Positions 3,286 to 64,000 of a stretch of DNA of 64,000 nucleotides are shown here, one piece after another (position 1 is the stretch's first letter; each line of letters opens with the position of its first letter). The position numbers and the translations under genes are program-made. The notes below the pieces were generated by a model. It had not been told where the DNA came from and did not search any database. It was given only the letters and a program-made list of their open reading frames with translations. Source of the stretch: Candidatus Moraniibacteriota bacterium (GTDB lineage Bacteria > Patescibacteriota > Minisyncoccia > Moranbacterales > GCA-2747515); contig CALNYG010000013.1 of assembly GCA_942490825.1 (NCBI GenBank), positions 189,359 through 253,358 on the forward strand, in the 5' to 3' direction.

Positions 3286-4452
3286 ATGCAACAAAATTTT
3301 AAATCAAACATTTGGAAATATTTTATTCTTGTATTTACGCAAAGAAGAAATTTTCTTCCAGTATTATCAATATATTTTTTAACAATCCCAAATACCCAAG
3401 TTCAGCAAATCGGAATTTACACAGCAGCAGGAGCTCTAGCTTCTTTTTTATTAGAAATACCAAGTGGATATTTCGCAGATATTTTTGGACATAAAAAAAC
3501 TTTAGTTGTTTCAAAAATATTCATGTTTTTGTCTTCAATATTTTTTATCATAGCCGATAGTTTTTGGTATTTTTTAGCTGGGTCAGTTTGTATAAGTTTA
3601 GGTTGGGCTTTTATGTCAGGGGCTGGTAATGCTTTTATGCATGAGACTTTAATTAAATTAAAAAGAGAAGGTGAGTATACAAAGATAATGTCTAAACTTT
3701 CAGCTAATGTCTCACTTTTATGCATACCTTTTATAATTACTCTGCCATTTTTTACAAAAATAGATATTGTTTTACCTATAATCATTTGGGCCTTTTTTGA
3801 TTTTTTAGGATTAATAATAATTTTATCTGCAACTGATCCAAAAAATGGAGTGATGATTGCTAAAAAAGATCAGAAGTCAATTTTTACTCTTATTAAAGAA
3901 ATCAAGCATGATAAATTTTTTGCAGTTGCAATTTTTACAGGCGCTATTTCGGCGTTTACGGTTACAATGGGATCGTTTCGTCCTGTTTACCTTGAATCAT
4001 TAGGATTTCAAGTAGTTTTTTTAGGTTTTGTAATGGGAGGATCTAGGTTTGTTTGGTTTCTTGTGGGTCATCGTGTGCATTGGATAGAAAAATTTCTTTC
4101 AATGAAGCAACATTTTTTAATTGAAATTTTAGTGTTTGTTGGAGGCTTATTTTTATTAGCAGTTCTTAATAATGTATATATTATTGCTATTGTTTTTATT
4201 TTGATAAATGGTTATTGGTTAGGTAGAGATCAATTGATTAGTGGATACTTTTTAAAAGATTATATTAAAGATAAAAATTATAAAGCCACGCTTTTGTCTG
4301 TGCGTAGCCAAATTTCAGCAATGATTCAAATAGCCACTTCTTTTTTAATTGGATTTGTAATGAATTATTCTTATCAACTAGGATATGCAGTTTTAGGTGG
4401 AGTTCTTTTGTTAATACTATCTTCAAGTTACTATTTTATTCGAAAACATTAA
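3286..4452 (+). CDS. MFS-type transporter
   Basis: About 12 hydrophobic segments. Motif-A-like GYFADIFGHKKT after the second helix. Confidence 0.65.
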   Translation: MQQNFKSNIWKYFILVFTQRRNFLPVLSIYFLTIPNTQVQQIGIYTAAGALASFLLEIPSGYFADIFGHKKTLVVSKIFMFLSSIFFIIADSFWYFLAGSVCISLGWAFMSGAGNAFMHETLIKLKREGEYTKIMSKLSANVSLLCIPFIITLPFFTKIDIVLPIIIWAFFDFLGLIIILSATDPKNGVMIAKKDQKSIFTLIKEIKHDKFFAVAIFTGAISAFTVTMGSFRPVYLESLGFQVVFLGFVMGGSRFVWFLVGHRVHWIEKFLSMKQHFLIEILVFVGGLFLLAVLNNVYIIAIVFILINGYWLGRDQLISGYFLKDYIKDKNYKATLLSVRSQISAMIQIATSFLIGFVMNYSYQLGYAVLGGVLLLILSSSYYFIRKH

Positions 4453-7878: not shown

Positions 7879-8559
7879 ATGAAAAAAATATTATCAATCG
7901 TTTGTTTTGGGTTTATTTTATGCGGATGTGAAAGTAATGATGCTAATAACAGCATTGAAAATGATTCGAATGTTATTAAAAGTGATTTTGGTTTTGAGAT
8001 TAAAGTCCTTAAAGAATGGAAGGTATCAAAGTATAATTCAATTATGAATGCTAATGATTTGTTACTTGAAAAAAGTGATAGGCAAAAAAGTTTAGCAAAA
8101 ATAGTTGATAATCAAGAATTGAACGATGAAGAAAAGGAGATGCATAAAAATTTTATTGATAATTATAATTTGAATGAAAGTCAATATATAACTTTAGTTA
8201 AAAAAGAAGATGATGTTGAAAGTGTCAGTGCGGATGATTTTGATAATTTTATTAAAAATATTTCTACTGGGGATCAGTCAGTTGTTGATTTTGTCATTAG
8301 CTCAAGTAATATTAATTTCGATAAGATAATTGAGAAAGGCGAAGGTGATGTTGAAATTAAAGTTTTTGAAACAAATGAAAATATTAAATTTAAATATTCA
8401 AATAGACAGGGTTTCCAGATTATAAATATTCCTTTAAACTCAAATAAAAAGTTAGCTAATGGAGAAATTGCTAGTCAATTAGGTGTCATTGTTAATGATA
8501 AATTTATGAGTAAAGAAAAATTAATTGAGTGGATAAAAACAATAAAATTAGATAGATAA
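7879..8559 (+). CDS. putative lipoprotein, unknown function
   Basis: Signal peptide with lipobox-like FILCGC. No recognisable domain. Confidence 0.5.
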   Translation: MKKILSIVCFGFILCGCESNDANNSIENDSNVIKSDFGFEIKVLKEWKVSKYNSIMNANDLLLEKSDRQKSLAKIVDNQELNDEEKEMHKNFIDNYNLNESQYITLVKKEDDVESVSADDFDNFIKNISTGDQSVVDFVISSSNINFDKIIEKGEGDVEIKVFETNENIKFKYSNRQGFQIINIPLNSNKKLANGEIASQLGVIVNDKFMSKEKLIEWIKTIKLDR

Positions 8560-8624
8560 TTTAAGAGTTTTCATGATATAAATTTTAAAAAATGCTATGA
8601 CGATGTTTTTGATTTTCATCAAGC

Positions 8625-8867
8625 TCAAAAAATAATTACCACTTTATTATTTTTAATGTGGCATTCTCCATTTTTACTTTTAATAATTATTTTATTATTA
8701 TTAACATCAAAAAATCTCAAAACTATATTTCCTTCACTAACCAAAATAAAAGATTCAGCATGTCCAGTTAAAATTTCCATATTTCCAGAAGAAATTGGAA
8801 TTAGTATGCTTTTCAAATTATCATAAACTTTATTTTCACTTGAAGAAGTGATTTTGCAAGTGATCAT
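8625..8867 (-). CDS. atpC: F1 ATP synthase epsilon subunit, beta-sandwich only (80 aa)
   Basis: Sits immediately after atpD. Contains the GNMEILTGHAESFILVSEGNIV pattern of the epsilon N-domain. No C-terminal helical hairpin. Confidence 0.7.
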   Translation of the reverse strand: MITCKITSSSENKVYDNLKSILIPISSGNMEILTGHAESFILVSEGNIVLRFFDVNNNKIIIKSKNGECHIKNNKVVIIF

Positions 8868-8868
8868 T

Positions 8869-11080
<2,212 letters not shown>

Positions 11081-11124
11081 ATTTAAACTTTTATAAATTT
11101 TAATATTTATTCATTTTGCCTCGT

Positions 11125-11148
11125 CTGTTTATTTTATAAAATAAACAG
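11125..11148. repeat. perfect 11-bp palindrome in the atpA-atpG spacer
   Basis: ctgtttatttt-at-aaaataaacag. Confidence 0.7.
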
Positions 11149-11199
11149 TTTCCAGTTAAAATTACATAAGAGAATTAATGATAAAATATATTTAAAATA

Positions 11200-12672
11200 T
11201 TAAACTTGAGAATAAGACAATAAAAATTCTTGCTTAAAATCATTAACAATTTCTTGAATTTTAACTTTTATTTCATTATCAAACGTTCCACTTTCAATTT
11301 TTTCTAATGTCTTAAAATAACGGTTTCGTATTAATTCAAGTAAAAGAATCTCAAAAGTACTCCATTTATTTTTATCAATGTCATCAAAAAAACCTTTTTC
11401 TACAACATAAAATAATACCACTTGTTCAGGCCATTTAATATTCACGTGTTTATTTTGTTTTAAAAGTTCTAACATTAATTCTCCTCTGTAAATTTTTTTC
11501 TGAGCTTCAAGACTAACAGTCGTTTCTAATTGGGATAGCTTTTGTAATTCTTTATGTTGAGCTAAAACCAAACGAATTCCACTCACCACTTCTTTTAAAA
11601 CTTTAGGTTGCACTTGTGATCCTACTCTAGAAACAGAGAGTCCCACATTTACCGCTGGTAAAAAACCTTTCTGATAAAGACCTCTTTCTAAATAAATTTG
11701 TCCATCAGTAATAGAAATAATATTAGTCGGAATAAAAGACGTGATATCACCTTCTTGTGTTTCAACAATTGGCAAAGCTGTTAATGAGCCGCCACCTTTT
11801 TCCTCAGATAATTGAGCTGCTCGTTCCAAAAGACCAGCATGCAAAGAAAAAATATCACCTGGGTAAGATTCTCTTCCCGGAGATCTTTCTAATAATAATG
11901 AAATATCCCTGTAAGTTTTAGCATGTTTTGAAAGGTCATCATAAATAACCAAAGCGTCTTTACCTTGATCTCGAAAATATTCGCCAATAGCACAACCCAC
12001 AAAAGGCGCTAAATATTTTTCTGAAAATGAAGCATCTGCTGAAGAGGCTACTATTGTAGTGTATAAAAATGTATTATTTTTTTCACAAAGAGCAACTAAT
12101 TCTTTAATTTCTCTTTCTTTTTGACCACAAAAAACGTAGATACAATAAACTGGTGATTTATTATTTTTTTGATTTAATATTGTATCGATGGCAATCGTAC
12201 TTTTTCCTAATTTTTGATCACCGATTATAAGTTCTCTTTGACCTCTACCTAAAGGAAGATTTGTATCAATGATTTTTATTCCAGTAGAAAGGGGAGTGGT
12301 AACTGGAGATCTATCTATGATTGAAGGTGCTTGTTTAAAAATGCTAGTTGATTTCCCTTGAATTTCCCCTAATCCATCCCTTGCTTCTCCTAGACCATTG
12401 ACGATCCTACCTATGTAATCATCAGATATTTTTATAGAAAAAAGCTGATTACTGCGAAAAACAGTTTTTTTAAAATCAAATTTTTCCGAAAAAAATAATG
12501 CCTCAACAAAATCTTTGTCAAAACTTAAAACAATTGCCACTGAATTTCCTTGTTCATCCAAAAGAACTTCGTGTAAAAAAACTTGAGGCAAACCCTGAAT
12601 TCTAGCGATGCCCGAAAAAAAAGATATTATTTTTCCTGAGTTATTTTTTGTAGTGTTTATTTTATTTTTCAT
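11200..12672 (-). CDS. atpA: F1 ATP synthase alpha subunit
   Basis: P-loop GDQKLGKST, then YDDLSKHAKTYRDISLLL and PGDIFSLHAGLLERA. Confidence 0.95.
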   Translation of the reverse strand: MKNKINTTKNNSGKIISFFSGIARIQGLPQVFLHEVLLDEQGNSVAIVLSFDKDFVEALFFSEKFDFKKTVFRSNQLFSIKISDDYIGRIVNGLGEARDGLGEIQGKSTSIFKQAPSIIDRSPVTTPLSTGIKIIDTNLPLGRGQRELIIGDQKLGKSTIAIDTILNQKNNKSPVYCIYVFCGQKEREIKELVALCEKNNTFLYTTIVASSADASFSEKYLAPFVGCAIGEYFRDQGKDALVIYDDLSKHAKTYRDISLLLERSPGRESYPGDIFSLHAGLLERAAQLSEEKGGGSLTALPIVETQEGDITSFIPTNIISITDGQIYLERGLYQKGFLPAVNVGLSVSRVGSQVQPKVLKEVVSGIRLVLAQHKELQKLSQLETTVSLEAQKKIYRGELMLELLKQNKHVNIKWPEQVVLFYVVEKGFFDDIDKNKWSTFEILLLELIRNRYFKTLEKIESGTFDNEIKVKIQEIVNDFKQEFLLSYSQV

Positions 12673-13033
12673 TTTCTATTTTAGCTAAACGAGATTTAAT
12701 TTGTTTTATAATAGCATTTTTTTCATTTTGAGTTTCCTCACTGGATCGCTTTTTTAATTCACTTGCAATATCTTCTGCTTCTTTAATAATTTTTTTTGCT
12801 TGATTTTTAGTTTCAATAATCTTTTCTTTCTTTTCTTTGGCAAAAAGTTCTTTTTCTTCTCCTAATTTTATTTTTTGTGTTTTGACTTGCTTTAATTCTT
12901 TTTCATCTTTTTCAATTCGATCTATAATCGGTTTATAAAGAAACTTTTTTAAAATTATTAAAAGTAACCCAAAGTTTATCATTTGAGCGATTAAAAGTTT
13001 TATATCTATACCTAAATTTCCTAAAAATTCCAT
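12662..13033 (-). CDS. atpF: Fo ATP synthase b subunit (short, 123 aa)
   Basis: A single N-terminal TM helix (LIAQMINFGLLLIILKKFLYKPI) followed by a long charged helix. Overlaps the atpA start by 11 nt. Confidence 0.75.
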   Translation of the reverse strand: MEFLGNLGIDIKLLIAQMINFGLLLIILKKFLYKPIIDRIEKDEKELKQVKTQKIKLGEEKELFAKEKKEKIIETKNQAKKIIKEAEDIASELKKRSSEETQNEKNAIIKQIKSRLAKIENEK

Positions 13034-13177
13034 ATTTTATTTTTATAAAAACAATTTAAAAAAATCAAAAAATAAATATTTTTTTTAAAAGTGAACAAAA
13101 AAACATTAAACTTTTTGAAATTATCCACCTTTTCATTTTAAATGTAACTCACTTGTTGAATAGCAGATAGGTGAAAC

Positions 13178-13236
13178 GGAACAGAGAAATCTCAAAGTTC
13201 CATATCTTTATTTAAGCTTTGAGATCTCTCCATTCC
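13178..13236. repeat. long imperfect hairpin inside the atpE-atpF spacer
   Basis: ggaacagagaaatctcaaag (13178-13197) pairs with ctttgagatctctccattcc (13217-13236). Confidence 0.7.
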
Positions 13237-13466
13237 ATATTTTTTCACTGTACTCATCTTTTAATTATAAACAGTTTCAAAATATTTTATTCGAGATAGT
13301 ATGTGCAGAAATTTTTAAAGAGGTCTATTTTTTAAAAACTATAATTTTAATATAAAAGTTAAAAATTTTTAATTTAAAATAATTTGATAATTTTAATAAA
13401 TATAAATTCTATTGAGCTATTTAAAAATGAGTTTATTTAAATCTTTTAAAATATTCACCTAAAATA

Positions 13467-13682
13467 TTACTGAACAAATTTCAAAATAAGTGCAATTACC
13501 AAAGCATAAATTGCAATAGCCTCCGCAAATGCAATTGCAATAATCATCGTAATTTGAATTTTATCAGAATTTTCTGGATTACGTGCCATGCCCATTAAAC
13601 CAGCCGCTCCAATCATACCAATAGCTAATGCTGGTCCTATTGAACCAATTGCCATAGTAAAAGCTGATGAATCTTGAATCAT
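13467..13682 (-). CDS. atpE: Fo ATP synthase c subunit
   Basis: Two-helix hairpin with loop ARNPE and a carboxylate in AFAEAIAIYALV. Confidence 0.9.
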   Translation of the reverse strand: MIQDSSAFTMAIGSIGPALAIGMIGAAGLMGMARNPENSDKIQITMIIAIAFAEAIAIYALVIALILKFVQ

Positions 13683-13715
13683 ATTCTTATTTTTAATTAT
13701 TTATATTATTATCTT

Positions 13716-14450
13716 TTATTCAATATTATTAACCATGCTAGTTTTGATAAATGTCAAAGTTAACATGGTAAAAATAAAAGCTTGGATTATTCCTACAAAA
13801 ACTTCTAAAATCATAAACGGCAAAGGAATCAAATAAGGAATCAAAAAAGCGATAACTAAAAGTAAAACTTCTCCAGCAAAAATATTTCCAAATAATCGAA
13901 AAGAAAAAGAAAGCACTTTAACGCCTTCTGAAATTATTTCAAAAAAACCTAAAATAAATTTAATCGGATTCGTAAAATTAATAAATCTTTTTGAATAACT
14001 TTTAAATCCTAATTTACTTAAGGAAAAAAACTGGATAGCTAAAACTGAAAATAATGCTAAAGCTATCGTAGTGCTTAAGTCACTGTTTGGTGAACGTAAA
14101 AGCGATACTTTTTCTGATTGAAAATTAACAAAAAAAGATCCTAAAAATCCTGGAATTAGAGCTAATAAATTAGCGGTGACTATAAATAAAAAAAATGTAG
14201 AGATCAGAGGGAGAATTCTTTTAGACATTTCTCTTTCTTGAGTTACTAAATCCGTTAATTTTAATAACTCAAAAATTATAACTCGCATTGCTTTAATAAA
14301 AAGATTATTGCTATTCCTTTTTTTAAAATAAAAAAATATACCTAAAAAACTAAGTATTATGGTAACTAATATAGAAGTTAAAAAAGTATTTGTTATTAAA
14401 AAACCAAAAAAAGAAAAAATATATTCTGATTGTAGATTGATATTAATCAT
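13716..14450 (-). CDS. atpB: Fo ATP synthase a subunit
   Basis: Multi-TM protein with the conserved Arg context SFSFRLFGNIFAGE. Confidence 0.85.
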   Translation of the reverse strand: MININLQSEYIFSFFGFLITNTFLTSILVTIILSFLGIFFYFKKRNSNNLFIKAMRVIIFELLKLTDLVTQEREMSKRILPLISTFFLFIVTANLLALIPGFLGSFFVNFQSEKVSLLRSPNSDLSTTIALALFSVLAIQFFSLSKLGFKSYSKRFINFTNPIKFILGFFEIISEGVKVLSFSFRLFGNIFAGEVLLLVIAFLIPYLIPLPFMILEVFVGIIQAFIFTMLTLTFIKTSMVNNIE

Positions 14451-14673
14451 CTTTATTTTTAATTAAGGGAGCAAGTAGACGACGAACTTCATAAATAGTA
14501 GTAATAAATCCTAATAATAATCCTAAAAATAAAAAGATTAATTGTGTTTTAAAAAATTTACCTGCTAAAATTCCTAAAAACAAAAAACCAATTATAGGAA
14601 CTGTAATAAAAAAACCTAACTGCCAAGCAATTGATATTGCGTAAAATGTTTTGAAATTATTTTTTTTAGGCAT
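14443..14673 (-). CDS. small two-TM protein at the head of the atp operon (AtpI/AtpZ-like)
   Basis: 76 aa with two hydrophobic helices. Overlaps the atpB start. Assigned by position only. Confidence 0.45.
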   Translation of the reverse strand: MPKKNNFKTFYAISIAWQLGFFITVPIIGFLFLGILAGKFFKTQLIFLFLGLLLGFITTIYEVRRLLAPLIKNKDD

Positions 14674-14744
14674 TTAGTTTATTACAATTTTATTTTTCAA
14701 GTTAAACTAAGAATTTAATTTTAATTTTCAATTTGACTATTTTA

Positions 14745-14773
14745 ATTTTACGCCCTTATTAAACCATCGTCAA
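14745..14773 (-). promoter_or_regulatory. sigma70-like promoter for the atp operon
   Basis: The minus strand reads TTGACG-N17-TAAAAT, about 70 nt upstream of the first atp ORF. Confidence 0.45.
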
Positions 14774-15127
14774 ATTAAAAAAAACTTTTATTTAAATATG
14801 TTTCTATTTTATAAGAGCTAATAGATATTCCTTTTGGTAAATTTATACCGTTTTCAATTAACCTCTCTCCATTCTTAAATATTTATTTGTGACAAAACAT
14901 CACAAATGTTAATTATTAAAAATAATCACTGAGGAATAATTACTTAGAAATGATACTAGAAGTATTAGAAATAAATTAAAAAACTTAGCAAACAGGGCTC
15001 CGAACCCTGTTTGTACAGAGGTAGAATCCCTGTATGCGAAAAAATAATTAGTTATACTAGAACCAATAAACCCTTTCATAATCTTTAAAAGAAGGGATAA
15101 GCAAACCGTCTTTTATTTAAATTGCGT

Positions 15128-15360
15128 AGTATAGACATCACACCATGAAACCGCACTTTTTATAATTACATATCATTTCGAAAGATATTTTTTATTTAAA
15201 AGCTTGCATATTGCACGGCAGAAAGGTTAATTTATCTGGAATTTCAATAAGTTTTTCTGATATTTAACAAGATTCCGGATAAACAATTTTTCCGCTCCGC
15301 TACAAAATTATTTTCCGGAATGACATGGTTTGTGTGGTTTGTTAATGTGATGTCTATAGT
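15128..15360. repeat. B-family-containing element with roughly 13-27-nt terminal inverted repeats
   Basis: tatagacatcacacc at the left end and gtgatgtctata at the right end. The interior carries attccggataaa ... ttttccggaatgacat. Confidence 0.6.
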
Positions 15361-15451
15361 TTATTAGGGATGGTATTAATAGTATCAAATTAATACTACA
15401 TTTTGTATAAAAAAATCTTTTGGGTTTAAATTTAAATTATATTTTTTAGTA

Positions 15452-15480
15452 ATGACGGAAAAATTAAATTTTGCTATAAT
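15452..15480 (+). promoter_or_regulatory. promoter with an extended -10 upstream of the GT4 gene
   Basis: ATGACG-N17-TATAAT with a TG at the extended -10 position (TGcTATAAT). Confidence 0.45.
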
Positions 15481-15508: not shown

Positions 15509-16612
15509 ATGCGCATTGCGATTGACGGTTCGAGAGCTTTTCTTCATGAGAGGACAGGGATTGAGGAGTATTCTTATCAACTTATTAAACATTTGAGAAA
15601 ATATTTAATGGATGATCAGGTGATTTTGTATTTACGGAAAGGAACCGAAGAGAATATCGATTTCAATCTACCGCGAAATTGGGAAGTCAAAGAACTGAGT
15701 GCACGACGGTTTTGGACTTATTGGCGACTTTCTTGGGAAATTCTTTTTCATTGGCCAGATCGACTTTTGATTTCTAGTCATATTGTTCCGCCGATTCACC
15801 CAAAAAATACAACTTCGGTTATTCACGGAATTGAATATGAAATTTATCCAGAGGCTTATTCTAAAAAGGAATATCGTACGATGCGGCGAGGAATTCGTAA
15901 TTCTTGTAAATGGGCGAAACGAATTATTTGTGTTTCGAATAATACTAAAAAAGATTTAGTTGAATATTATGATGTTCCTGAAAGTAAAATGAGGGTTATT
16001 TACGAAGGTGTTAATCCTGCATATGAAAGTGAAGAGCATTATGATACTATTTTGTTGCAGAGAAATGGATTGGAAAGAAAAAAATACTTATTTTTTATTG
16101 GCAGGCTGGAAGAGCGAAAAAATATTATAAATATTTTGAAGGCGTTTGAGGTTTTAAAAACTCATTTTCGTGTGCCTCATAAATTAGTTTTAGCGGGAAA
16201 GCCTGGTTTTGGTTGGGAATATATTGAAGAGGAATTAGAAGAACATGAATACAAAGATGATATTCTTTTGACGGGTTTTGTGACAGATAAAGAAAAGTGG
16301 TCATTTTTGCGAAATGCTTCAGTTTTTGTTTTTCCAACTTTGTATGAAGGTTTTGGTTTACCGATTTTGGAAGCTCAACAGGTTGGCATTCCTGTGGTTA
16401 CTTCTGATCATTCTTCATTGAAGGAAGCGGCTTTGGAGAGCACTTTGATGGCGGATCCTCATGTTCCTGCAGAAATTGCGGAAAAGACTCATGTTTTAAT
16501 TAGTGATCAGGAAAAGCGAAATGATGTTATTAATAAAGGTTACGAAAATATTAAAAGGTTCAGTTGGGATCGTTGTGCAAAGTTGATGGCAAAGGTTTTG
16601 CGGATGGGGTAG
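15509..16612 (+). CDS. glycosyltransferase family 4 (GT-B)
   Basis: C-terminal signature FVFPTLYEGFGLPILEAQQVGIPVVTS. Confidence 0.8.
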   Translation: MRIAIDGSRAFLHERTGIEEYSYQLIKHLRKYLMDDQVILYLRKGTEENIDFNLPRNWEVKELSARRFWTYWRLSWEILFHWPDRLLISSHIVPPIHPKNTTSVIHGIEYEIYPEAYSKKEYRTMRRGIRNSCKWAKRIICVSNNTKKDLVEYYDVPESKMRVIYEGVNPAYESEEHYDTILLQRNGLERKKYLFFIGRLEERKNIINILKAFEVLKTHFRVPHKLVLAGKPGFGWEYIEEELEEHEYKDDILLTGFVTDKEKWSFLRNASVFVFPTLYEGFGLPILEAQQVGIPVVTSDHSSLKEAALESTLMADPHVPAEIAEKTHVLISDQEKRNDVINKGYENIKRFSWDRCAKLMAKVLRMG

Positions 16613-16946: not shown

Positions 16947-18089
16947 ATGAAAACAACAAATTCAAAAAAAACCAAAAATTTAAAAATCGCTCTGGTTCAT
17001 GATTTTCTAATCTATCCTGGTGGAGCGGAAAAAGTATTGGAAACACTTTGTGAAATGTTTCCTGAGGCACCGATTTACACTTTGCTTTATGACGAAAAAA
17101 ACATGAAAGGAATGTTTAAAGATAAAAAAATTCACACTTCTTTTTTACAAAAATTTCCAAAGTTTATTCGCAAACATCATCGGTGGCTTTTGCCTTTTTA
17201 TGCTTCAGCGGTGGAGACTTATAATTTACGAGATTACGATTTGATAATTTCTAGTTCAGGTGCCTGGAGCAAGGGAATTGTAACTCGAGTTGATACAAAA
17301 CACATTGCTTACATTCATTCGCCAATGCGTTTTATCTGGGATGAAAATGAAAAATATTTAAAACGAAATAGAAATTTTAAAATTAATTTTTTTGTGCGAC
17401 AGATTTTAAGTTATTTACGGATTTGGGATTCTCAGGCGAGTAAACGACCAGATTTTTTAATTGCAAACTCTAAGTATACTCAAGCGAGGATTTCGAAATA
17501 TTATCGTCGTGATTCTGAAGTGATTTATCCGCCAGTGGATTTGGGTTTGCCATTGGCAAACCCCTACGATGCAATGACGGGTGAAAATTCAGAAAAGCCT
17601 TTTGTGATTATTTCGCGACTTTCTACTTACAAAAATGTGGTGTTGACAGTTGAAGCTTTTAATAAATTGAATTTACCTCTAGTTGTAATAGGCGATGGTG
17701 AGGAGAGAAAACATTTGGAGAAAATTGCTGGTCCAAAAATTGAGATTTTGGGTTGGGTTGATGAAAAGAAAAAACAGGAGATTTTAAATAATTCTCGGGC
17801 GTTTATTTTTCCGTCTGAGGATGATTTTGGGATTGTGTGTGTGGAGGCATTGAATGCTGGATTGCCTGTGATTGCTTTGCGAAAGGGTGGTGCGAGGGAG
17901 ATTGTGCAGGAGGGTGTTACGGGTGAGTTTTTTGATGCTCCAACGGTTGAGGTTTTGGCGGATGGCGTGAGGAGATTTTTGGAGAATGAGGATTCTTATG
18001 ATAGAGGAGTTATTAAAAAATCTACAGAGAGGTTCAGTAAGGATGTTTTTAAGGAAAAGATTTTGGGGTTTTTGGATGGGGTTTTGTAG
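16947..18089 (+). CDS. glycosyltransferase family 4 (GT-B)
   Basis: FIFPSEDDFGIVCVEALNAGLPVIALRKGGAREIV. Confidence 0.8.
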   Translation: MKTTNSKKTKNLKIALVHDFLIYPGGAEKVLETLCEMFPEAPIYTLLYDEKNMKGMFKDKKIHTSFLQKFPKFIRKHHRWLLPFYASAVETYNLRDYDLIISSSGAWSKGIVTRVDTKHIAYIHSPMRFIWDENEKYLKRNRNFKINFFVRQILSYLRIWDSQASKRPDFLIANSKYTQARISKYYRRDSEVIYPPVDLGLPLANPYDAMTGENSEKPFVIISRLSTYKNVVLTVEAFNKLNLPLVVIGDGEERKHLEKIAGPKIEILGWVDEKKKQEILNNSRAFIFPSEDDFGIVCVEALNAGLPVIALRKGGAREIVQEGVTGEFFDAPTVEVLADGVRRFLENEDSYDRGVIKKSTERFSKDVFKEKILGFLDGVL

Positions 18090-18129
18090 CGGTTTGGTTT
18101 TGTGGGTGATTTTTAGACAAAAGAAAAAA

Positions 18130-18159
18130 GTGATTATTTTTGGAATAATCGCTTTTTTT
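18130..18159 (+). terminator. intrinsic terminator after the GT4 gene
   Basis: Stem gtgattatt/aataatcgc (one G-U pair), loop tttgg, then a T7 run. Confidence 0.6.
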
Positions 18160-18176
18160 GGTGGTGATTTTTTTTA

Positions 18177-18202
18177 TAGAAAACTAAAGTAGACAGGCAT
18201 GG
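18177..18202 (+). repeat. left arm of the inverted repeat flanking orphan gene A
   Basis: tagaaaactaaagtagacaggcatgg. Confidence 0.8.
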
Positions 18203-18227
18203 TTTTTTGAAGTTGGAATTAGGAATA

Positions 18228-18254
18228 GGAAAAGAACGCCCTACGTTCTTTTCC
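18228..18254 (-). terminator. hairpin 12 nt downstream of orphan gene A
   Basis: Perfect 11-bp stem ggaaaagaacg/cgttcttttcc. Weak U tract. Confidence 0.45.
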
Positions 18255-18265
18255 CAGATAGAGGA

Positions 18266-18898
18266 TTACTCTTCGTTGTTAATATACGCTGCACTCGACG
18301 ATTGCTCCATAGTGATGGTTAACGTCCGCCTATTTCGCTGTATTTTAATCGGACCACACTCATATCGGCTCTGGTCTACTTCATATTTCAATGAAGCTTT
18401 TTTTGTTGTTTTTGGAAACCATGTCGTTCCGTTTTCAATTATTGGCAATATGTCAGCACTCATCCAGTCTTTCATCCATTGTGCTGAGTGAGCAATCTCA
18501 CTCTCTAGCATGCGAATCTCACTCTTGTTCAGGCTACTCCTTTCGGTTTGTAATCGTTGGTGAGCATTTTCTCCCCTTTCCCACATTTCTTTTTCATTTC
18601 CTCTAAGAACCATTTGTTTGGTACTCATAATTTTCTCTCCTGTTTCTTTGTTTGTAGGAATATAAACTTCCGTTGATGGTGTAGATGGTGTTGGTTCATT
18701 GCAATGTGGGCGGTTTGAAGCTCTTTGATTTCCTAAATCTGGTTTAAATATAGTATAGGCGAATCCTGCTAATACAAACAAACAAGCCACAGCTGTGCCA
18801 AGCGTAAAATCTTGAGATTTCCCTGTTAATCCATAAAAAGGAATTAATCCAATAGCTCCAGAACCGATTATTATAGTTGCATCATTAAAAAATGACAT
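18266..18898 (-). CDS. orphan membrane protein A (two N-terminal TM helices, P/S/T linker, soluble C-domain)
   Basis: 210-aa ORF. SD GAGGAGGA lies 5-6 nt before the ATG. An 11-bp hairpin lies 12 nt after the stop. No family recognised. Confidence 0.6.
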   Translation of the reverse strand: MSFFNDATIIIGSGAIGLIPFYGLTGKSQDFTLGTAVACLFVLAGFAYTIFKPDLGNQRASNRPHCNEPTPSTPSTEVYIPTNKETGEKIMSTKQMVLRGNEKEMWERGENAHQRLQTERSSLNKSEIRMLESEIAHSAQWMKDWMSADILPIIENGTTWFPKTTKKASLKYEVDQSRYECGPIKIQRNRRTLTITMEQSSSAAYINNEE

Positions 18899-18988
18899 AT
18901 TAATCCTCCTCTATCTAAAATTTTCTTCAGAAATTCCAAAAATCTAATTCAAAAATAATTTTATCTTTGAATAAAATTTAAGGAAAAC

Positions 18989-19010
18989 CCATGCCTACTT
19001 TAGTTTTCTA
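18989..19010 (-). repeat. right arm of the inverted repeat flanking orphan gene A
   Basis: ccatgcctactttagttttcta. Matches the reverse complement of the left arm at 22/22 positions with one 4-nt indel. Confidence 0.8.
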
Positions 19011-19038
19011 TTTGGTTGTCAAAAAACTATGATTATTA

Positions 19039-19067
19039 ATGTTAATATCATTAATTGAAAAAGTCAA
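19039..19067 (-). promoter_or_regulatory. candidate promoter for orphan gene A, outside the right IR arm
   Basis: The minus strand reads TTGACT-N17-TAACAT. Confidence 0.35.
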
Positions 19068-19108
19068 GCCCATTTTAGCGGAGCTCAGTAAATCTTCCAA
19101 AACTACTA

Positions 19109-19137
19109 TTGACTTTTTAGATATTTGGGTGTAGATT
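19109..19137 (+). promoter_or_regulatory. candidate promoter for the orphan B-C-D operon
   Basis: TTGACT-N17-TAGATT, about 90 nt upstream of ATG 19229. Confidence 0.45.
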
Positions 19138-19228
19138 TATATATCGTTCAAATGTAGTTCTTTTATTAACGAAATCATATTTTTGAACGAGTTATGGTTT
19201 TTATTGAATATTGGTTAGGAGGGAAGTT

Positions 19229-19660
19229 ATGAAATGGCTAACAAAGCTTAAAAAACGAATTAAAACGGATTTTCCTGAACCACCATTTTATCCTCCTGTG
19301 GAAAGTGATGGCGGAGGAGGTGGTGGTGAGAGAGCCTTGGTTCCAGTTTCAAAAAATGATTTAAATGATGATGGAGTCAAAAGTGGCGTGTATCGCGTTT
19401 CTTTGTGCGGTAAAAAAGCATTATTGTCAATTAATTTAGACATGGAAGATATGTGCTGTTTCTTTTTACAGGAAGCGGAACCTCGAAGATTTCCATTGAA
19501 TGAATTAAGTGAGTTCAAATGTGACCATAAAAACCCTTTGAAGAATACAGAGGTAAATCATATTCTTATGCGGGATACAGCTTATGGAACCAACAAAAAA
19601 GTCGAAGATCTGGCGGGGATATATGAGGCCTTAATAAAATTTAGTAAGGACGGGGGATAA
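19229..19660 (+). CDS. orphan protein B (143 aa; PP-rich and Gly6 linker)
   Basis: ATG 19229 is preceded by AGGAGGG at 19217-19223. The ORF-track TTG start at 19211 is rejected. No family recognised. Confidence 0.6.
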   Translation: MKWLTKLKKRIKTDFPEPPFYPPVESDGGGGGGERALVPVSKNDLNDDGVKSGVYRVSLCGKKALLSINLDMEDMCCFFLQEAEPRRFPLNELSEFKCDHKNPLKNTEVNHILMRDTAYGTNKKVEDLAGIYEALIKFSKDGG

Positions 19661-19664
19661 ATCC

Positions 19665-19994
19665 ATGAGGAAAGATAAATGGTACAGGAAAGTTGATCTT
19701 CTCTATATTTTCGGTCGAGAGGTTCATCTTTTACCTAAAGATGAAGTTGAGATTGACTTAGAAAAAACATCTAGTGCTGAAATCAGAATCAGAATTACTA
19801 CCAGCAGGTCTTTACCTTGCTCGTCTGTTCGTATCAATATGGACAGCGATATCTTGACGGAAGTTATAAGTTATAAAGATGATATTATTTTCCGCATTGC
19901 AAGTTGTTTAAAAGAAAATAAAAAAATAACCAAAGACGATGTGGAGGATATTATTAATAATATTATAATACAAGAAATGTCGCCTGAATGGTAA
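19665..19994 (+). CDS. orphan protein C (109 aa)
   Basis: Starts 4 nt after the stop of B, preceded by the G-rich SD GGACGGGGGA. No family recognised. Confidence 0.6.
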   Translation: MRKDKWYRKVDLLYIFGREVHLLPKDEVEIDLEKTSSAEIRIRITTSRSLPCSSVRINMDSDILTEVISYKDDIIFRIASCLKENKKITKDDVEDIINNIIIQEMSPEW

Positions 19995-20004
19995 AGGAGG
20001 GATT

Positions 20005-20241
20005 ATGAATTGGAGATTTAAGTCAGGAAGTACGAGGACTACTACTCCTCAAGATGAAAGTACAACTGCCACTGTTCAACAAGGTGTCAGTCAGTCCTCT
20101 CCAGTTTCAAATTCAAAAGATGACTTAGGTATAGTTGGTGCGATAATAATTTTTTTGATTTTTGTATTTATTGTCGCAAATGCTTTATTTGATATTCCTT
20201 TGAAAAATCTTCGGAAAAAAAAGAGCGATGAGTTGGAGTGA
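20005..20241 (+). CDS. orphan protein D (78 aa, S/T-rich N-terminus, single C-terminal TM helix)
   Basis: Starts 10 nt after the stop of C with SD AAGGAGGG. Followed by an intrinsic terminator. Confidence 0.55.
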   Translation: MNWRFKSGSTRTTTPQDESTTATVQQGVSQSSPVSNSKDDLGIVGAIIIFLIFVFIVANALFDIPLKNLRKKKSDELE

Positions 20242-20247
20242 TAAGAT

Positions 20248-20286
20248 GGGCAGTTGAGGAAAACCTCAACTCGCCCGTTTTTTTTA
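20248..20286 (+). terminator. intrinsic terminator after orphan gene D
   Basis: gggcagttgagg-aaaa-cctcaactcgccc (one bulge) followed by a T8 run. Confidence 0.7.
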
Positions 20287-20294
20287 TCAAAAAA

Positions 20295-20323
20295 ATGACA
20301 ATTCAAAAAAAATATAGTAGAAT
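20295..20323 (+). promoter_or_regulatory. candidate secDF promoter
   Basis: ATGACA-N17-TAGAAT. Confidence 0.4.
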
Positions 20324-20379
20324 AAAAGAGACTTGGGATTACTGAGTCTTATTTTCGTTATGTAATAAACCAAAACAAT

Positions 20380-23013: not shown

Positions 23014-23028
23014 AAAGCTGTAAAGTTT

Positions 23029-23088
23029 CCTGTCATTCTGAACGCAATAAATTTATCGCAGATAAATTTATGAAGTGAAGAATCCCCC
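23029..23088 (+). repeat. A-family palindromic unit A1
   Basis: cctgtcattctgaacgca + hairpin ataaatttatc-gca-gataaatttat + gaagtgaagaatccccc. Confidence 0.9.
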
Positions 23089-23114
23089 AAAGAGAATCAC
23101 AAAACCAAAAATTT

Positions 23115-23399
23115 ATGGAAAAAACCTATTACGTTTATATTGCAACAAATAAATGGAATACAGTTTTATACACGGGAGCAACGAGTAATTTAGAAAATAG
23201 AATTTATCAACATAAAAATAAAATAATAAAAGGTTTTACAAGTAAACATAATATTTATAAATTAGTTTATTATGAAACCTTTTCAAATCCTGATGATGCG
23301 ATATTAGCTGAAAAGAAAATAAAAGGTTGGACGAGAAAAAAGAAAATTGATCTCATTGAAAAAGAAAATTCAAAATGGGAGGATTTGAGTGTAATTTAA
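23115..23399 (+). CDS. GIY-YIG (URI-domain) nuclease family protein, 94 aa
   Basis: YYVYIATNK...VLYTGATSNLENRIYQHK...YYE core. Confidence 0.85.
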   Translation: MEKTYYVYIATNKWNTVLYTGATSNLENRIYQHKNKIIKGFTSKHNIYKLVYYETFSNPDDAILAEKKIKGWTRKKKIDLIEKENSKWEDLSVI

Positions 23400-23419
23400 A
23401 AGGTTCGTGTTTCTTTTTT

Positions 23420-23479
23420 GGGGGATTCTTCACTTCTTTATTTTTTTAACAAAAAAATAAATCCGTTCAGAATGACGGG
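23420..23479 (-). repeat. A-family unit A2 (inverted)
   Basis: gggggattcttcacttc + hairpin tttattttttt-aac-aaaaaaataaa + tccgttcagaatgacggg. Confidence 0.9.
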
Positions 23480-23534
23480 TAAATTTGAATGATTTATAAT
23501 AATTTAAAATTAATTAACAATTAAATTAAAAAAT

Positions 23535-23975: not shown

Positions 23976-24098
23976 CTACTTGTTCAGTAGATATAGCATA
24001 AGCCCTCCAAATATTAAACCGGGAAACCCAACCATGGGAATAGAAAATCCCCAAACTATCAAGAAAACAAACCCTATATTTAATAAATTCTTCCCCAT
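23976..24098 (-). CDS. unlisted 40-aa hydrophobic peptide (MGKNLLNIGFVFLIVWGFSIPMVGFPGLIFGGLMLYLLNK)
   Basis: Below the ORF-track length cutoff. AGGAGG (24104-24109) lies 5 nt before the ATG. The stop is followed by the 23932-23967 hairpin. Confidence 0.45.
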   Translation of the reverse strand: MGKNLLNIGFVFLIVWGFSIPMVGFPGLIFGGLMLYLLNK

Positions 24099-24185: not shown

Positions 24186-25112
24186 ATGTCAAGCGTAATT
24201 TTTAAAAATCCAAAAATATTTGTCATAATTTTAAATTATAATGGCGGAAAAGATTTATTAAAAACCATTGAAAGTGTGGTTGAATCAGATTATTTAAACT
24301 TAGAAATAATTTTGGTGGATAATAATTCTTCTGATGATTCTTTAAATTTAGCTAAACAATGGGTTGCAACCCATTGTTCAAGTGAGAATAAATTTCCAAA
24401 AGTTCACTTTATTAAAAATAAAAAAAATTTAGGATTTGGAGCCGGGAATAATATTGGAATAAAATATGCTTTTGAGAATGGTGCGGATTTTGTTTTTCTT
24501 TTAAATAATGACGCTTTAGTTCAAGAAAATACAATTTCTAATTTAGTTGATTCTATTAAGAACGAAAAAAATATTGGATTAGTAAGTCCTATAATTTATT
24601 CAGATTTAGATTACAAAAAAGTTTGGTTTTCTGGTGGAAAAATAAATTGGTGGAAAATGCGAGCGGAACATGTTCAGTATTTGACTGAACAAGGGGTCAT
24701 GACCCCTTGTTCAAATGATAATAACGTTATTCAATCAGATTTTATAACAGGTTGTGCAATGTTGATTAGTCGGGATATTTTTGAAAAAGTCGGATTATTT
24801 GATGAAAATATTTTTCTTTATTATGAAGATACTGATTTGTCTTTGCGAGTGAAAAAAGCTGATTTAAGAAATTTAGTTGTTGCAAGTTCAAAAGTTTTTC
24901 ATGCAGAGAAAAGTGAGGAAAATCAATCCAAAAAAATTTATTGGTTGGTTCTGTCAGGAGTTTATTTTTTTAAAAAACACGCAAAAGACTTTTGGAAAAT
25001 TTATTTGAGTATTTATTTATTTTTGCGAAAGTTTAAGAATTTTTTAGATGCGAAGTTTCGACCGAATGAGGTGAATTTGGCGGTTGAGAGGGCTTATGGA
25101 GACATTGATTGA
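24186..25112 (+). CDS. glycosyltransferase family 2
   Basis: IFVIILNYNG, LVDNNSSDDS, LLNNDA, YYEDTDLSLR. Confidence 0.8.
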   Translation: MSSVIFKNPKIFVIILNYNGGKDLLKTIESVVESDYLNLEIILVDNNSSDDSLNLAKQWVATHCSSENKFPKVHFIKNKKNLGFGAGNNIGIKYAFENGADFVFLLNNDALVQENTISNLVDSIKNEKNIGLVSPIIYSDLDYKKVWFSGGKINWWKMRAEHVQYLTEQGVMTPCSNDNNVIQSDFITGCAMLISRDIFEKVGLFDENIFLYYEDTDLSLRVKKADLRNLVVASSKVFHAEKSEENQSKKIYWLVLSGVYFFKKHAKDFWKIYLSIYLFLRKFKNFLDAKFRPNEVNLAVERAYGDID

Positions 25113-25158
25113 ATGTAATTTTAGGATAGTTGGGTTTGTGAATTTTGTGTTTTTCTGT

Positions 25159-25218
25159 GGGGGATTCTTCACTTCATAAATTTATCTGCGATAAATTTAT
25201 TACGTTCAGAATGACAGG
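25159..25218 (-). repeat. A-family unit A3 (inverted; 59/60 identical to the reverse complement of A1)
   Basis: gggggattcttcacttcataaatttatctgcgataaatttattacgttcagaatgacagg. Confidence 0.9.
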
Positions 25219-25281
25219 TTAATTTATCGGAATTTTTATGATCATAATAATATGGCAAATTCTAGATTTTCTTTTAGTTGA

Positions 25282-25301
25282 AAAGCCTGTGCGGCGAGCA
25301 C
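25282..25301 (+). repeat. GC-rich 20-mer, copy 2
   Basis: aaagcctgtgcggcgagcac followed by a T-rich run. Confidence 0.9.
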
Positions 25302-25356
25302 TTTATTTTTTTTAAAAATTAAAATATTAGTTTTAAGTAACTTTTGTAGAGAACAA

Positions 25357-29795: not shown

Positions 29796-30885
29796 TTATC
29801 TTTTCAACTTCAACCCAGAATCAGCCTGTAAAATTTTATAATTATCCAAACATTCAGCACGTTCAGTCTCAGACATCTTTTCCCAACGGTTGGCCGCAGC
29901 CAAAGCAATCATCGTAGCATTGTCCAAACAATACGTAAACGGCGGAACAGTAAAATCAACACCAGACAATTCATCATTCACAGCCGTTTCCAAGTCAGAT
30001 CGCAACTTTTTATTAGCACTAACACCACCAGCCAACACAACCGATTTAACACCAAATTCTCGAGTAGCTTTTATAGTTTTTTTAATTAAAACTTCAGTAG
30101 CAGCCAATTGAAATTCATTCGCAATTTTATCGATAAAATTTTCAGGAAGTGAATCTTCTTTAGAAAGATTGTTTTTTTCTCGAAAAGTTCTGATAGCATA
30201 AAGAGATGCAGTTTTCAATCCAGAAAAAGAAAAATCATAATCCTTTGTATTAATCATTGGGCGGGGAAGTTTTATTTCGTCAAATTCAGAATTTTTATTT
30301 TCTTCAAATTCTTCAGCTTTTTTATCGATGATTGGTCCGCCAGGGTAACTTAATCCTAACATCCGTGCAACTTTATCATAAGCTTCACCAACAGCATCGT
30401 CTTGTGTTTCGCCAACAATTTCATATTGCAAATGATCCCTCATTAAAATTAATTGAGTATGCCCACCTGAAACCACCAGAGCCAAAACAGGGAATTGAAC
30501 ATCTTTATTTTCTGCCCAGTTAGCGTAAATGTGACCTTCAGTGTGACTGAATACCCAAAAGTGGTTTTTGCCAAGCGTGAGCGAGCGATTTTGCGGTTGT
30601 AACGCCGACGAGGAGAGCAGGAATTAAACCTGGTCCTTGTGTGACGGCAATTAGATCAATGTCGTCTTTGGCCATTTTTGCTTCTTCGAGTGCTTCTTTC
30701 AAAACTGGAATTATGTTTTTTGTGTGTTCTCGTGCGGCTAGGTTTGGTACAACGCCACCCCATTCAGCATGAAGTTCAATTTGGGATGATACGACGTTGG
30801 CTAGTATTTCTGTTTTATTGTTTTCTGATTTTATGATGGCGATTGCTGTTTCGTCGCAAGATGTTTCGATTGATAGAATATTCAT
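29796..30885 (-). pseudogene. tsaD: tRNA N6-adenosine threonylcarbamoyltransferase TsaD, frame broken near 30538-30552 (true frameshift or assembly error)
   Basis: The N-terminal ORF (SIETSCDETA...AKSLAHAWQKPLLGIQSH*) ends at a TGA. The adjacent frame continues SHTEGHIYANW...LVVSGGHTQL...DDAVGEAYDKVARMLGL. Confidence 0.85.
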
Positions 30886-30927
30886 GATTTTTGATAATTA
30901 AAATTTAATAATTTTTAAATAGAATAG

Positions 30928-30987
30928 CTTGTTATTCTGAACGAAATAATTTTTATTTTATAAAAATTATGCAGTGAAGAATCTCAG
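30928..30987 (+). repeat. A-family unit A4 (diverged flanks)
   Basis: cttgttattctgaacgaa + hairpin ataatttttat-ttt-ataaaaattat + gcagtgaagaatctcag. Confidence 0.8.
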
Positions 30988-31034
30988 TAAGTTTTTCTGG
31001 CGCTTTGGTAACTTTGAGTTTTTGTGATTCTCTG

Positions 31035-31094
31035 CGGGGATTCTTCACTTCATGAATTTATCTACGATAAATTCATTACGTTCAGAATGACAAT
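31035..31094 (-). repeat. A-family unit A5 (inverted)
   Basis: cggggattcttcacttc + hairpin atgaatttatc-tac-gataaattcat + tacgttcagaatgacaat. Confidence 0.85.
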
Positions 31095-31141
31095 AAAATT
31101 TACTGAATAATAGAAAGCTTTTTAAATTATGTATCAGAAAT

Positions 31142-35954: not shown

Positions 35955-36317
35955 TTATTCTTCAGTTAAGATCGCTTCTCCATAAAGGAACAATGTTAAT
36001 ATAAAGGAGACATCGTTGTATTCAGTAGTAAAAACGGCAACGTTTTTGCATGAACTTTCAAAACCCTTGAAGCAAATTCTTTCCACCTGGAGTGTTACTG
36101 TCGATTTCATATTTTTAAAGTATACTTGATTATCTATGATTGCCAAGCATTTAAAAATTTTTGGAGAAGATAATCGATAGAATTGCCCGATTTTTAGCTT
36201 GGGTGAATTTACATGAGTAATATGACTTCTTTTATCTTCAGGTGTCAAAGCATTCCAATTTGAATTTGTTATGCTTCGAAATCTAGCTTCATTTCCAGTC
36301 ATTTGCATTGTTTTCAT
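35955..36317 (-). CDS. orphan protein (120 aa) antisense to the efflux genes
   Basis: Consensus promoter at 36384-36412 on the minus strand. GAGGA SD 7 nt before the ATG. No family recognised. Confidence 0.5.
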   Translation of the reverse strand: MKTMQMTGNEARFRSITNSNWNALTPEDKRSHITHVNSPKLKIGQFYRLSSPKIFKCLAIIDNQVYFKNMKSTVTLQVERICFKGFESSCKNVAVFTTEYNDVSFILTLFLYGEAILTEE

Positions 36318-63876: not shown

Positions 63877-63909
63877 TTTGTTGTGGTATAATTTAAAATA
63901 TTAGAAAAA

Positions 63910-63958
63910 CTTACTGAGATTGTCACGTCACTTCCTACGGTCATTCCTTGCAATGACG
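63910..63958 (-). repeat. degenerate repeat relative at the window end
   Basis: cttactgagattgtcacgtcacttcctacggtcattccttgcaatgacg. cttactgagat is the reverse complement of atctcagtaag at 30981-30991. Confidence 0.35.
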
Positions 63959-64000
63959 TACATTGCTTTAAAAATAAATTTAAAATAAAAAAATGGTTAC

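Follow-up and report, generated by a model that had tools for sequence, protein, structure and literature searches.

Gene content and expression signals of the cassette

A cassette of four genes, termed A to D, lies between the second of two GT4-type glycosyltransferase genes (GT4#2) and the gene for a fused SecDF in a 64-kb stretch of DNA with a G+C content of 30%, hereafter referred to as the window. The host is a member of Candidatus Moranbacteria (Parcubacteria, candidate phyla radiation (CPR)) with a tiny, reduced genome. Its GT4#1 protein (15509-16612) belongs to a cluster of at least 90% identity together with a protein annotated in a Candidatus Moranbacteria metagenome-assembled genome (MAG), and the single close relative of SecDF among 185,579 species genomes is from a Candidatus Moraniibacteriota MAG. 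The genes flanking the cassette are conserved chromosomal genes and are syntenic with those of relatives.

Gene A (18266-18898, minus strand, 210 aa) is oriented divergently to B (19229-19660, plus strand, 143 aa), C (19665-19994, plus strand, 109 aa), and D (20005-20241, plus strand, 78 aa), which form a coupled series with gaps of 4 nt between B and C and 10 nt between C and D. An earlier note on this DNA had described the same four open reading frames (ORFs), orientations, and gaps, and its coordinates are borne out. The codon positions of A-D fit real coding frames, having purine-rich first positions and, in 4/4 genes, a third-position G+C content (GC3) no higher than that of the first position (GC1). 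ORF lengths that are improbable in AT-rich DNA, these codon-position statistics, the coupled starts, and a copy on an independently assembled contig (L004) together identify A-D, as judged from sequence, as real protein genes.

The N-terminus of A is modelled as two hydrophobic helices (residues 3-23 and 29-51), of which only the second exceeds 1.6 on the Kyte-Doolittle (KD) scale and is clearly transmembrane. The helices are followed by a linker rich in Pro, Ser, and Thr, the layout that the earlier note had proposed, and by a C-terminal part whose model shows a helical hairpin (101-147) and then a small, poorly predicted end rich in beta structure. At the start of the soluble part, Met91 (18628, minus strand) is preceded in frame by an internal AGGAGA motif 7-8 nt upstream of its ATG. 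This internal start could give a 120-aa soluble isoform, although, like internal matches in other genes, it may be due to chance. Protein B harbors a basic amphipathic N-terminus, a Pro-rich linker with six glycines (PPFYPP...GGGGGG), and a globular part with four cysteines. Protein C is acidic (isoelectric point 5.2) and soluble. Protein D combines a Ser/Thr-rich N-terminus with a single, very hydrophobic transmembrane helix (KD 3.0) and a basic tail. For B and D, the linker and the Ser/Thr-rich one-helix layout had likewise been recognized correctly.

All four genes are preceded by a Shine-Dalgarno (SD) site. The start of A carries GAGGAGGA (18904-18911, minus strand) 5 nt upstream of its ATG, B carries AGGAGGG (19217-19223, plus strand), C carries GGGGGA (plus strand), which overlaps the end of B and is the weakest of the four, and D carries AAGGAGGG (19994-20001, plus strand). 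SD sites thus occur at 4/4 cassette starts versus 3/56 other starts in the window (Fisher p = 7e-5), confirming the earlier claim of SD sites at all four starts and A/T-rich leaders elsewhere; purely A/T-rich leaders are found at 53 of the 56. The three exceptions are weak and comprise S2 (AAGGA), an ORFan (a gene for a protein with no recognizable relatives) of 120 aa described below (GAGGA), and the start at 31924 (GAAGAGG). A strong SD site followed by an ATG outside known gene bodies is found in only a few places in the 64 kb, the four cassette genes included, and the core genes of the relative are likewise devoid of SD sites. From their leaders, A-D appear to be translated via SD pairing, a mode unused by the core genes of the host. 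Synonymous codon usage sets the cassette apart as well: A-D occupy ranks 3, 5, 6, and 7 of 60 genes in atypicality, and the chance of all four falling within the top seven is 7e-5. Ribosome-binding signals and codons unlike those of the host's own genes argue for foreign acquisition. A further pointer in this direction is a published account in which no anti-SD motif was detected in about half of Parcubacteria (PMC9297842).

Candidate sigma-70-like promoters are located back to back in the A-B intergenic region. The one for A (19039-19067, minus strand) reads TTGACT-17-TAACAT and the one for B-C-D (19109-19137, plus strand) TTGACT-17-TAGATT, each matching the consensus at 9/12 positions. The sites exist as the earlier note had claimed, but the region shows no enrichment in such matches (16 versus 11 +/- 3.1 in shuffled sequence), which makes them compatible with promoters without constituting evidence for them. 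The hairpins at the two ends are strongly supported, whereas the promoter sites are consensus matches only. The B-C-D operon is followed by an intrinsic terminator (20248-20285, plus strand) consisting of a hairpin (20248-20276) with a 12-bp stem and one bulge, followed by U8 (-24.5 kcal/mol, z -7.1). The hairpin 3' of A (18226-18256, minus strand) begins 10 nt past the stop codon and is also far stabler than shuffled sequence (-18.4 kcal/mol, z -4.3), but it lacks a U-tract on the strand of A, so that of the two terminators claimed only the hairpin itself stands at this end. Neither end hairpin was picked up by a simple terminator scan. Just beyond the hairpin of A, and belonging to the novel DNA, is a bidirectional terminator-like hairpin that follows GT4#2 (18123-18159), with T-runs on both strands (plus, -15.4 kcal/mol, z -4.8; minus, -9.4 kcal/mol, z -8.5). 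Among the leaders, that of A folds modestly (z -2.3) and that of B does not (z +0.4). Short direct repeats at the two ends of the segment, TTTTTTTTAT (18168 and 20278), were considered as an attachment (att) core; they are most simply explained as the T-tails of two terminators.

An inverted repeat brackets exactly A together with its SD site and hairpin, delimiting a unit of 836 bp. It consists of a 17-nt exact core (ATAGAAAACTAAAGTAG) and a 6-nt extension, GCATGG. In the left arm (18176-18202), core and extension are separated by the extra bases ACAG, and the right arm (18989-19011) lies in the presumed 5' leader of A, within the A-B intergenic region. Inverted 17-mer pairs within 1.5 kb are expected by chance about 0.04 times per 64-kb window. 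Paired as RNA, the arms have a free energy of -32.5 kcal/mol. Because the left arm is located between the U-less hairpin of A and the bidirectional terminator, both arms could be present on the mRNA of A. The repeat has no further copies in the window or in the 10 loci compared with it, and direct reading reveals no direct repeat (target-site duplication) abutting the arms. A 17-mer match to the core in an IMG/VR contig (L011) has neither the extension nor a partner arm and was set aside as chance.

The lineage-specific segment and its orphan proteins

One relative lineage, represented by the loci L001 and L005 (SecDF 81% identical, DNA 80-88%), retains the gene order GT4#1-GT4#2-SecDF and lacks A-D. 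Its GT4#2 and SecDF ORFs are separated by 485 bp, including some 320 bp of sequence bearing a miniature inverted-repeat transposable element (MITE), compared with a lineage-specific segment of 2,213 bp in the window (18077-20289). Homology to L001/L005 and to a third lineage, L009, is confined to the DNA outside this segment: it stops at 18076, within the last five codons of GT4#2, and resumes at about 20290 at the conserved SecDF promoter. The contig of L009 ends 49 nt past the same breakpoint with yet another sequence. Since three lineages diverge right after the same GT4#2 codon, the spacer is hypervariable and the cassette is lineage-specific. The comparison of the GT4-SecDF segment among relatives that the earlier note had suggested thus finds A-D absent from the spacer of the nearest one, with one lineage being informative. 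Scans of metagenomes for further SecDF relatives returned only distant, uninformative loci.

An independent assembly of the A-B divergent region is afforded by L004 (Logan ERR9669538), a 975-bp contig that matches window 18733-19710 at 99.4% identity. Three substitutions and three 1-nt deletions set it apart from the window; one of the deletions, in the region of 18764-18766, truncates A at residue 54, while another, in the region of 19647-19649, fuses B to C in frame via the linker MTGDKS. These changes, which include an adjacent substitution and deletion, may be sequencing or assembly errors, in which case they are meaningless.

Searches for relatives of the four proteins were empty. Among 5.8 billion proteins, A, B, and C retrieved only themselves, and A, run with full HMMER against 1.84 billion representatives, returned only a 54-aa fragment (P0013) from the near-identical L004; D was searched against family libraries and phages. 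Exact-protein look-ups have none of A-D on record, and no paralogues are found in the window or loci. Pfam and NCBIfam gave nothing above noise for A-D, neither a domain nor a helix-turn-helix, ribbon-helix-helix, or AbrB match. No PHROGs match was better than E 0.03, and PADLOC returned only C against Csm2 (E 0.086, 10.9 bits), with none for A, B, or D. The Csm2 match is attributed to chance, as is that of C to an AmiA-like profile (E 0.027, 14.4 bits against a cut-off of 27). Sequence matches in the PDB to SunS (24 residues) and CFAP100 all had E>0.1 and were rejected. The similarity of B to the neighboring GT2 protein (25% identity over 138 residues, 21% gaps, E 0.27 in a small database) is insignificant, and B has no Pfam GT2 signal.

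Single-sequence AlphaFold models were of little help: the predicted local distance difference test (pLDDT) was 36 for B (AF2), which is unusable, and 50 for A, which is nearly so. A Foldseek search of the PDB with the A model gave no match with E<0.7. A 46-residue match of A to the dimerization and histidine phosphotransfer (DHp) domain of histidine kinases was rejected as a generic helical hairpin, A having neither an H-box nor an ATPase domain.

On the sequence evidence, the four proteins are genuine ORFans, in agreement with the earlier statement that none of them is recognizable. No housekeeping family is matched, the genes are absent from the relative, and their SD sites and codon usage are distinct, all of which supports the earlier description of a self-contained orphan accessory unit.

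Genes of this type recur, both in the window and in the relative. A 40-aa, very hydrophobic peptide is encoded at 23976-24098 (minus strand; MGKNLLNIGFVFLIVWGFSIPMVGFPGLIFGGLMLYLLNK), on the strand opposite to its neighbors, with a perfect AGGAGG SD site and its own terminator; the same spacer of the relative holds a 132-aa SD-led ORFan (L005 16368-16766, minus strand). The layout of the 40-aa gene resembles that of a type I toxin or a small membrane protein. The 120-aa ORFan (35955-36317, minus strand) is located, again on the opposite strand, between HlyD-like (34707-35840) and AcrB-like (36568-39975) genes; it has a TTGACT-17-TATAAT promoter sequence, a GAGGA SD site, and a terminator, and ranks 4/60 in codon atypicality. 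Within 21 kb of L005, an SD site precedes only two genes, both of them lineage-specific ORFans that lie in variable spacers and on the opposite strand, namely the 132-aa gene and one of 78 aa (11215-11451, minus strand) that appears by eye to have two transmembrane helices. The 40-aa and 120-aa ORFans of the window and the two of L005 have no Pfam, PHROG, or PADLOC match. Because such units recur in the window and in the relative, the cassette is viewed as belonging to a class of self-contained ORFan units led by SD sites, and as its largest representative in this region.

Origin and possible role of the islet

The cassette is read as a moron-like ORFan islet, recently gained by horizontal transfer, that probably acts at the membrane. 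In full, the segment 18077-20289 is explained here, with a probability of roughly 0.6, as a recently acquired foreign islet with an unsampled donor and membrane-acting products. Its parts differ in strength. There is good reason for confidence that it arose by recent horizontal acquisition into a hypervariable spacer and carries two moron-like units with four real ORFan proteins. Direct observation covers the insertion as compared with one relative lineage, the foreign signature in translation signals and codons, the lack of relatives for the four proteins, and the presence of membrane segments in A and D.

In the proposed scheme, the islet would comprise two autonomous, divergent units, A bracketed by the 17+6-nt inverted repeat and the B-C-D operon with its coupled translation, and each unit would have a promoter, ribosome-binding sites, and a terminator of its own. 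The donor would be an unsampled mobile element or phage circulating in these bacteria. A mobile or phage pool of this kind is favored over a random bacterial donor because no homologues are found despite the dense sampling of SD-using bacteria, and because similar units recur in two related genomes. The products are proposed to act at the cytoplasmic membrane. Protein A would be anchored by its N-terminal helical hairpin, with a cytoplasmic part resembling a coiled coil, and the small D would be bitopic. The basic, amphipathic N-terminus of B, borne on a flexible linker of Pro and Gly, may dock B to the membrane, with the acidic C, fused to B in L004, as the putative partner of B. A role as a selfish or conflict-type membrane module, of an exclusion or toxin/immunity-like kind, is the favored functional guess but is suggested only tentatively. 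The earlier note had named defence or abortive infection, toxin-immunity, and phage exclusion or lysis as candidates, and nothing favors any of them, the PADLOC, PHROGs, phage, plasmid, and IMG/VR searches all being empty. As for a type II toxin-antitoxin system, A-D contain no toxin or antitoxin domain, the operon comprises three genes, and no DNA-binding antitoxin is matched. A lysis cassette would pair a holin with a peptidoglycan hydrolase; D is holin-like in layout only, and no hydrolase domain was detected in the cassette.

Several points weigh against the foreign islet. Its bulk G+C content is not distinct from that of its flanks (0.353, versus 0.346 on the left and 0.324 on the right), contrary to the earlier impression of a more G+C-rich cassette, and in tetranucleotide distance it ranks no higher than the top 7% of windows of equal size, in an atypical zone that also spans the conserved GT4#2; of the compositional measures, codon usage alone is distinct. 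One relative lineage covers the junction, and gain versus loss is therefore not polarized by phylogeny. The 50,697 phage records (tblastn, blastn) and 72,556 plasmids hold no similarity to the cassette, nor do the IMG/VR contigs scanned for A, B, and C. No integrase, transposase, or recombinase is present among the 29 non-cassette window proteins scanned against Pfam, about half of the window ORFs lying outside that scan, and neither an att site nor a target-site duplication was found for the cassette. The functional proposal draws on topology and architecture only. The 1-nt deletions of L004, if real, suggest decay in that population or that B-C is workable as one polypeptide. Lastly, the SD sites could not work as proposed if the host lacks an anti-SD sequence.

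Known systems share some of these features. In Bacteroidia, where translation is blind to SD sites, a small number of SD-led genes are reportedly translated by specialized ribosomes and under particular conditions (PMC9976891, PMC13000453). The two cases are alike in that A-rich, SD-less core leaders coexist with a small set of strong-SD genes. In contrast, the SD-led genes of Bacteroidia are the housekeeping regulators rpsU and prfB, while here they are ORFan accessory genes, and in Parcubacteria the anti-SD itself may be missing (PMC9297842).

The islet resembles phage morons in being composed of putatively autonomous units with a deviant sequence signature, inserted between conserved genes. 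Morons are reportedly independent units with a sigma-70-type promoter and a factor-independent terminator, often encoding small membrane or ORFan proteins. In contrast to them, the islet is located outside a prophage, with no phage genes nearby and no homology to phage families, and its signature lies in SD and codon use, not G+C content. Lineage-specific ORFan islets acquired horizontally are also said to occur in bacteria. Like these, the cassette consists of short, homologue-less genes with atypical codons that are absent from the syntenic site of a relative. It differs in having a CPR host whose core genes lack SD sites, and it therefore stands out by its mode of translation initiation. 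Protein D can be compared with class III-like holins and small membrane toxins, being short and last in a coupled operon, with just one helix, which is very hydrophobic, and a C-terminal tail of basic character. However, D has neither a family match nor a lysin partner, and its long Ser/Thr-rich N-terminus is unusual.

The most viable alternative, possible if rather doubtful, is compatible with foreign origin and treats A as a unit separate from B-C-D. The inverted repeat that encloses A, its SD site, and its hairpin at a chance expectation of about 0.04 per window speaks for it and can be read in three ways. First, the 836-bp unit could be a mobile cassette bounded by inverted repeats and devoid of a transposase. 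Mobile insertion cassettes (MICs), such as MIC231 of Bacillus cereus, carry a passenger between terminal inverted repeats without a transposase, and the unit of A shares this arrangement with MICs and with MITE-like elements that carry passengers. In contrast to MICs, it has no target-site duplication by direct reading and no further copies in the window or 10 loci (the viral-contig 17-mer match being chance), and no cognate insertion sequence is known. Second, a recombinase encoded elsewhere could invert A and thereby connect it to, or disconnect it from, the candidate promoter at 19039-19067, which sits outside the repeat, resulting in phase variation. The window genes scanned include no recombinase or transposase, though an enzyme acting in trans could reside elsewhere, and in L004, the sole independent contig, which ends short of the left arm, the orientation at the right arm is unchanged. 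Third, the 5' and 3' ends of the A mRNA could pair via the repeat, giving a hok-like fold-back that controls stability or is processed by RNase III; the strength of the RNA duplex speaks for this, and the position of the U-less hairpin, with a terminator beyond the left arm, would allow both arms to be on one transcript.

It is also conceivable, though unlikely, that the islet is foreign DNA that is not, or never was, functional in this host, its ORFs still intact on account of recent acquisition and its SD sites being donor relics that the host cannot use. The frameshifting deletions in A and at the B/C junction within the 975 bp of L004 would fit such a relic, as would the lack of homologues anywhere searched, which leaves no sign of conservation, and the reported absence of the anti-SD from many Parcubacteria (PMC9297842). 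However, the four ORFs, SD sites, spacings, and terminators of the window are all intact, the L004 changes may be errors, and the recurrence of SD-led ORFans at several spacers in two genomes about 15-20% apart in DNA is easier to understand if the sites are usable.

Two further explanations are each improbable. In one, the cassette dates back to the ancestor of this Moranbacteria clade, and the relative lost it and has a MITE in its place, the SD sites and codons reflecting special expression needs. Such a history is permitted by the single relative lineage that spans the junction, by the hotspot character of a spacer that differs in all three lineages, and by the raised GC3 of the conserved GT4 neighbors. 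Against this stand the codon usage and translation signals, which are outliers, and the finding of no homologue of A, B, or C in the other genome and metagenome protein sets searched, CPR included. In the other, the cassette is a remnant of a phage lysis or superinfection-exclusion module, with D as a holin-like small membrane protein, A as a second membrane component, and B and C as accessory proteins. The layout of D, a 78-aa protein whose single, strongly hydrophobic helix is followed by a short basic tail at the C-terminus, and the moron-like units, each with a promoter candidate and a terminator, would suit this origin, and ORFans are said to be often phage-derived. In contrast, no PHROG is matched better than E 0.03, there is no endolysin or catalytic domain (the best being the subthreshold AmiA-like match of C, E 0.027), similarity to phage and IMG/VR sequences is absent, and no adjoining phage genes, integrase, or att site are seen. 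Finally, an assembly or binning chimera that misplaced 2.2 kb of DNA into the GT4#2-SecDF interval is most improbable, since, although no independent contig covers the junctions (L004 spans 18733-19710 only) and short T-rich direct repeats occur at both ends (18168-18183 and 20278-20293), these are only 10 nt exact and too short to mislead an assembler, host-syntenic sequence is present on both sides in one 290-kb contig, and the novel DNA supplies a proper terminator for GT4#2 while leaving the conserved SecDF promoter intact.

With the recently acquired foreign islet as the preferred reading, its interest lies mainly in translation. Strain-specific ORFans (A-D, the 40-aa and 120-aa genes, and the two of the relative) carry strong SD sites, candidate promoters of canonical type, and terminators amid SD-less core genes. 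The islet thus bears on whether the ribosomes of Parcubacteria can still use SD pairing and on whether CPR accessory genes come from SD-using donors or elements. A more far-reaching idea, offered as speculation, is that A-D constitute an undescribed two-part membrane conflict system (A under control of the inverted repeat, and a B-C-D complex) from a hidden pool of SD-dependent ORFan modules that move between Parcubacteria spacers. If such a pool exists, these bacteria would retain the ability to recognize SD sites, or expose it under certain conditions, specifically for accessory or mobile genes. Only with a function would the four proteins themselves contribute to biological knowledge, but the islet is a clean natural marker. 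The GT4-SecDF spacer and its neighbors are exchange hotspots in otherwise syntenic, reduced genomes.

Neighboring genes and other features of the window

The surroundings of the cassette are devoted to envelope biogenesis, with two GT4 proteins, the fused SecDF, GT2 and PMT-type transferases, and an RND pump, and they are neither a defence island nor a prophage. The window genes scanned contain no defence domain, and the immediate neighbors are GT4, GT4, and SecDF. The SecDF protein carries a PPIC-type rotamase-like insert. Its promoter (ATGACA-17-TAGAAT) and a leader hairpin (20328-20350) lie within 20295-20350, which aligns with L001 at about 3615-3694 with 71% identity.

An F-type ATP synthase operon, recognized from synteny and reading only and lying outside the Pfam scan, is part of a segment of about 7.6 kb (approximately 7893-15469) that is absent from this position in L005 and L009. 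The segment is situated between the MreB/DKNYY genes and GT4#1. The operon lies on the minus strand and has a negative GC skew and host-like leaders. The difference in position looks like a rearrangement or translocation. Elsewhere in the window, the gene for TsaD is split into two minus-strand ORFs (29796-30485 and 30538-30885) that cover Pfam positions 1-89 and 107-263, respectively. The N-terminal piece has the most atypical codon use of the window, and a frameshift, a pseudogene, or faulty assembly could account for the split.

A family of MITE-like repeats, 65-200 nt in length, is represented in the window at 23018-23116, 23391-23493, 25136-25326, and 30909-31106, in L001 at 3312-3502, and in L009 at 3972-4151. 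Two inverted copies flank a small GIY-YIG gene (23115-23399) that the relative lacks, and the same family fills the GT4#2-SecDF spacer of the relative, at the site where the window has the cassette. A separate palindromic element occurs inside coding regions, at 24680-24713 and 63892-63959 in the window, 2751-2784 in L001, and 6316-6383 in L009. It encodes ..EQGVMTPCS.. in both the GT2 gene of the window and the GT4#2 gene of the relative, and is reminiscent of in-frame insertions of the Rickettsia-palindromic-element type.

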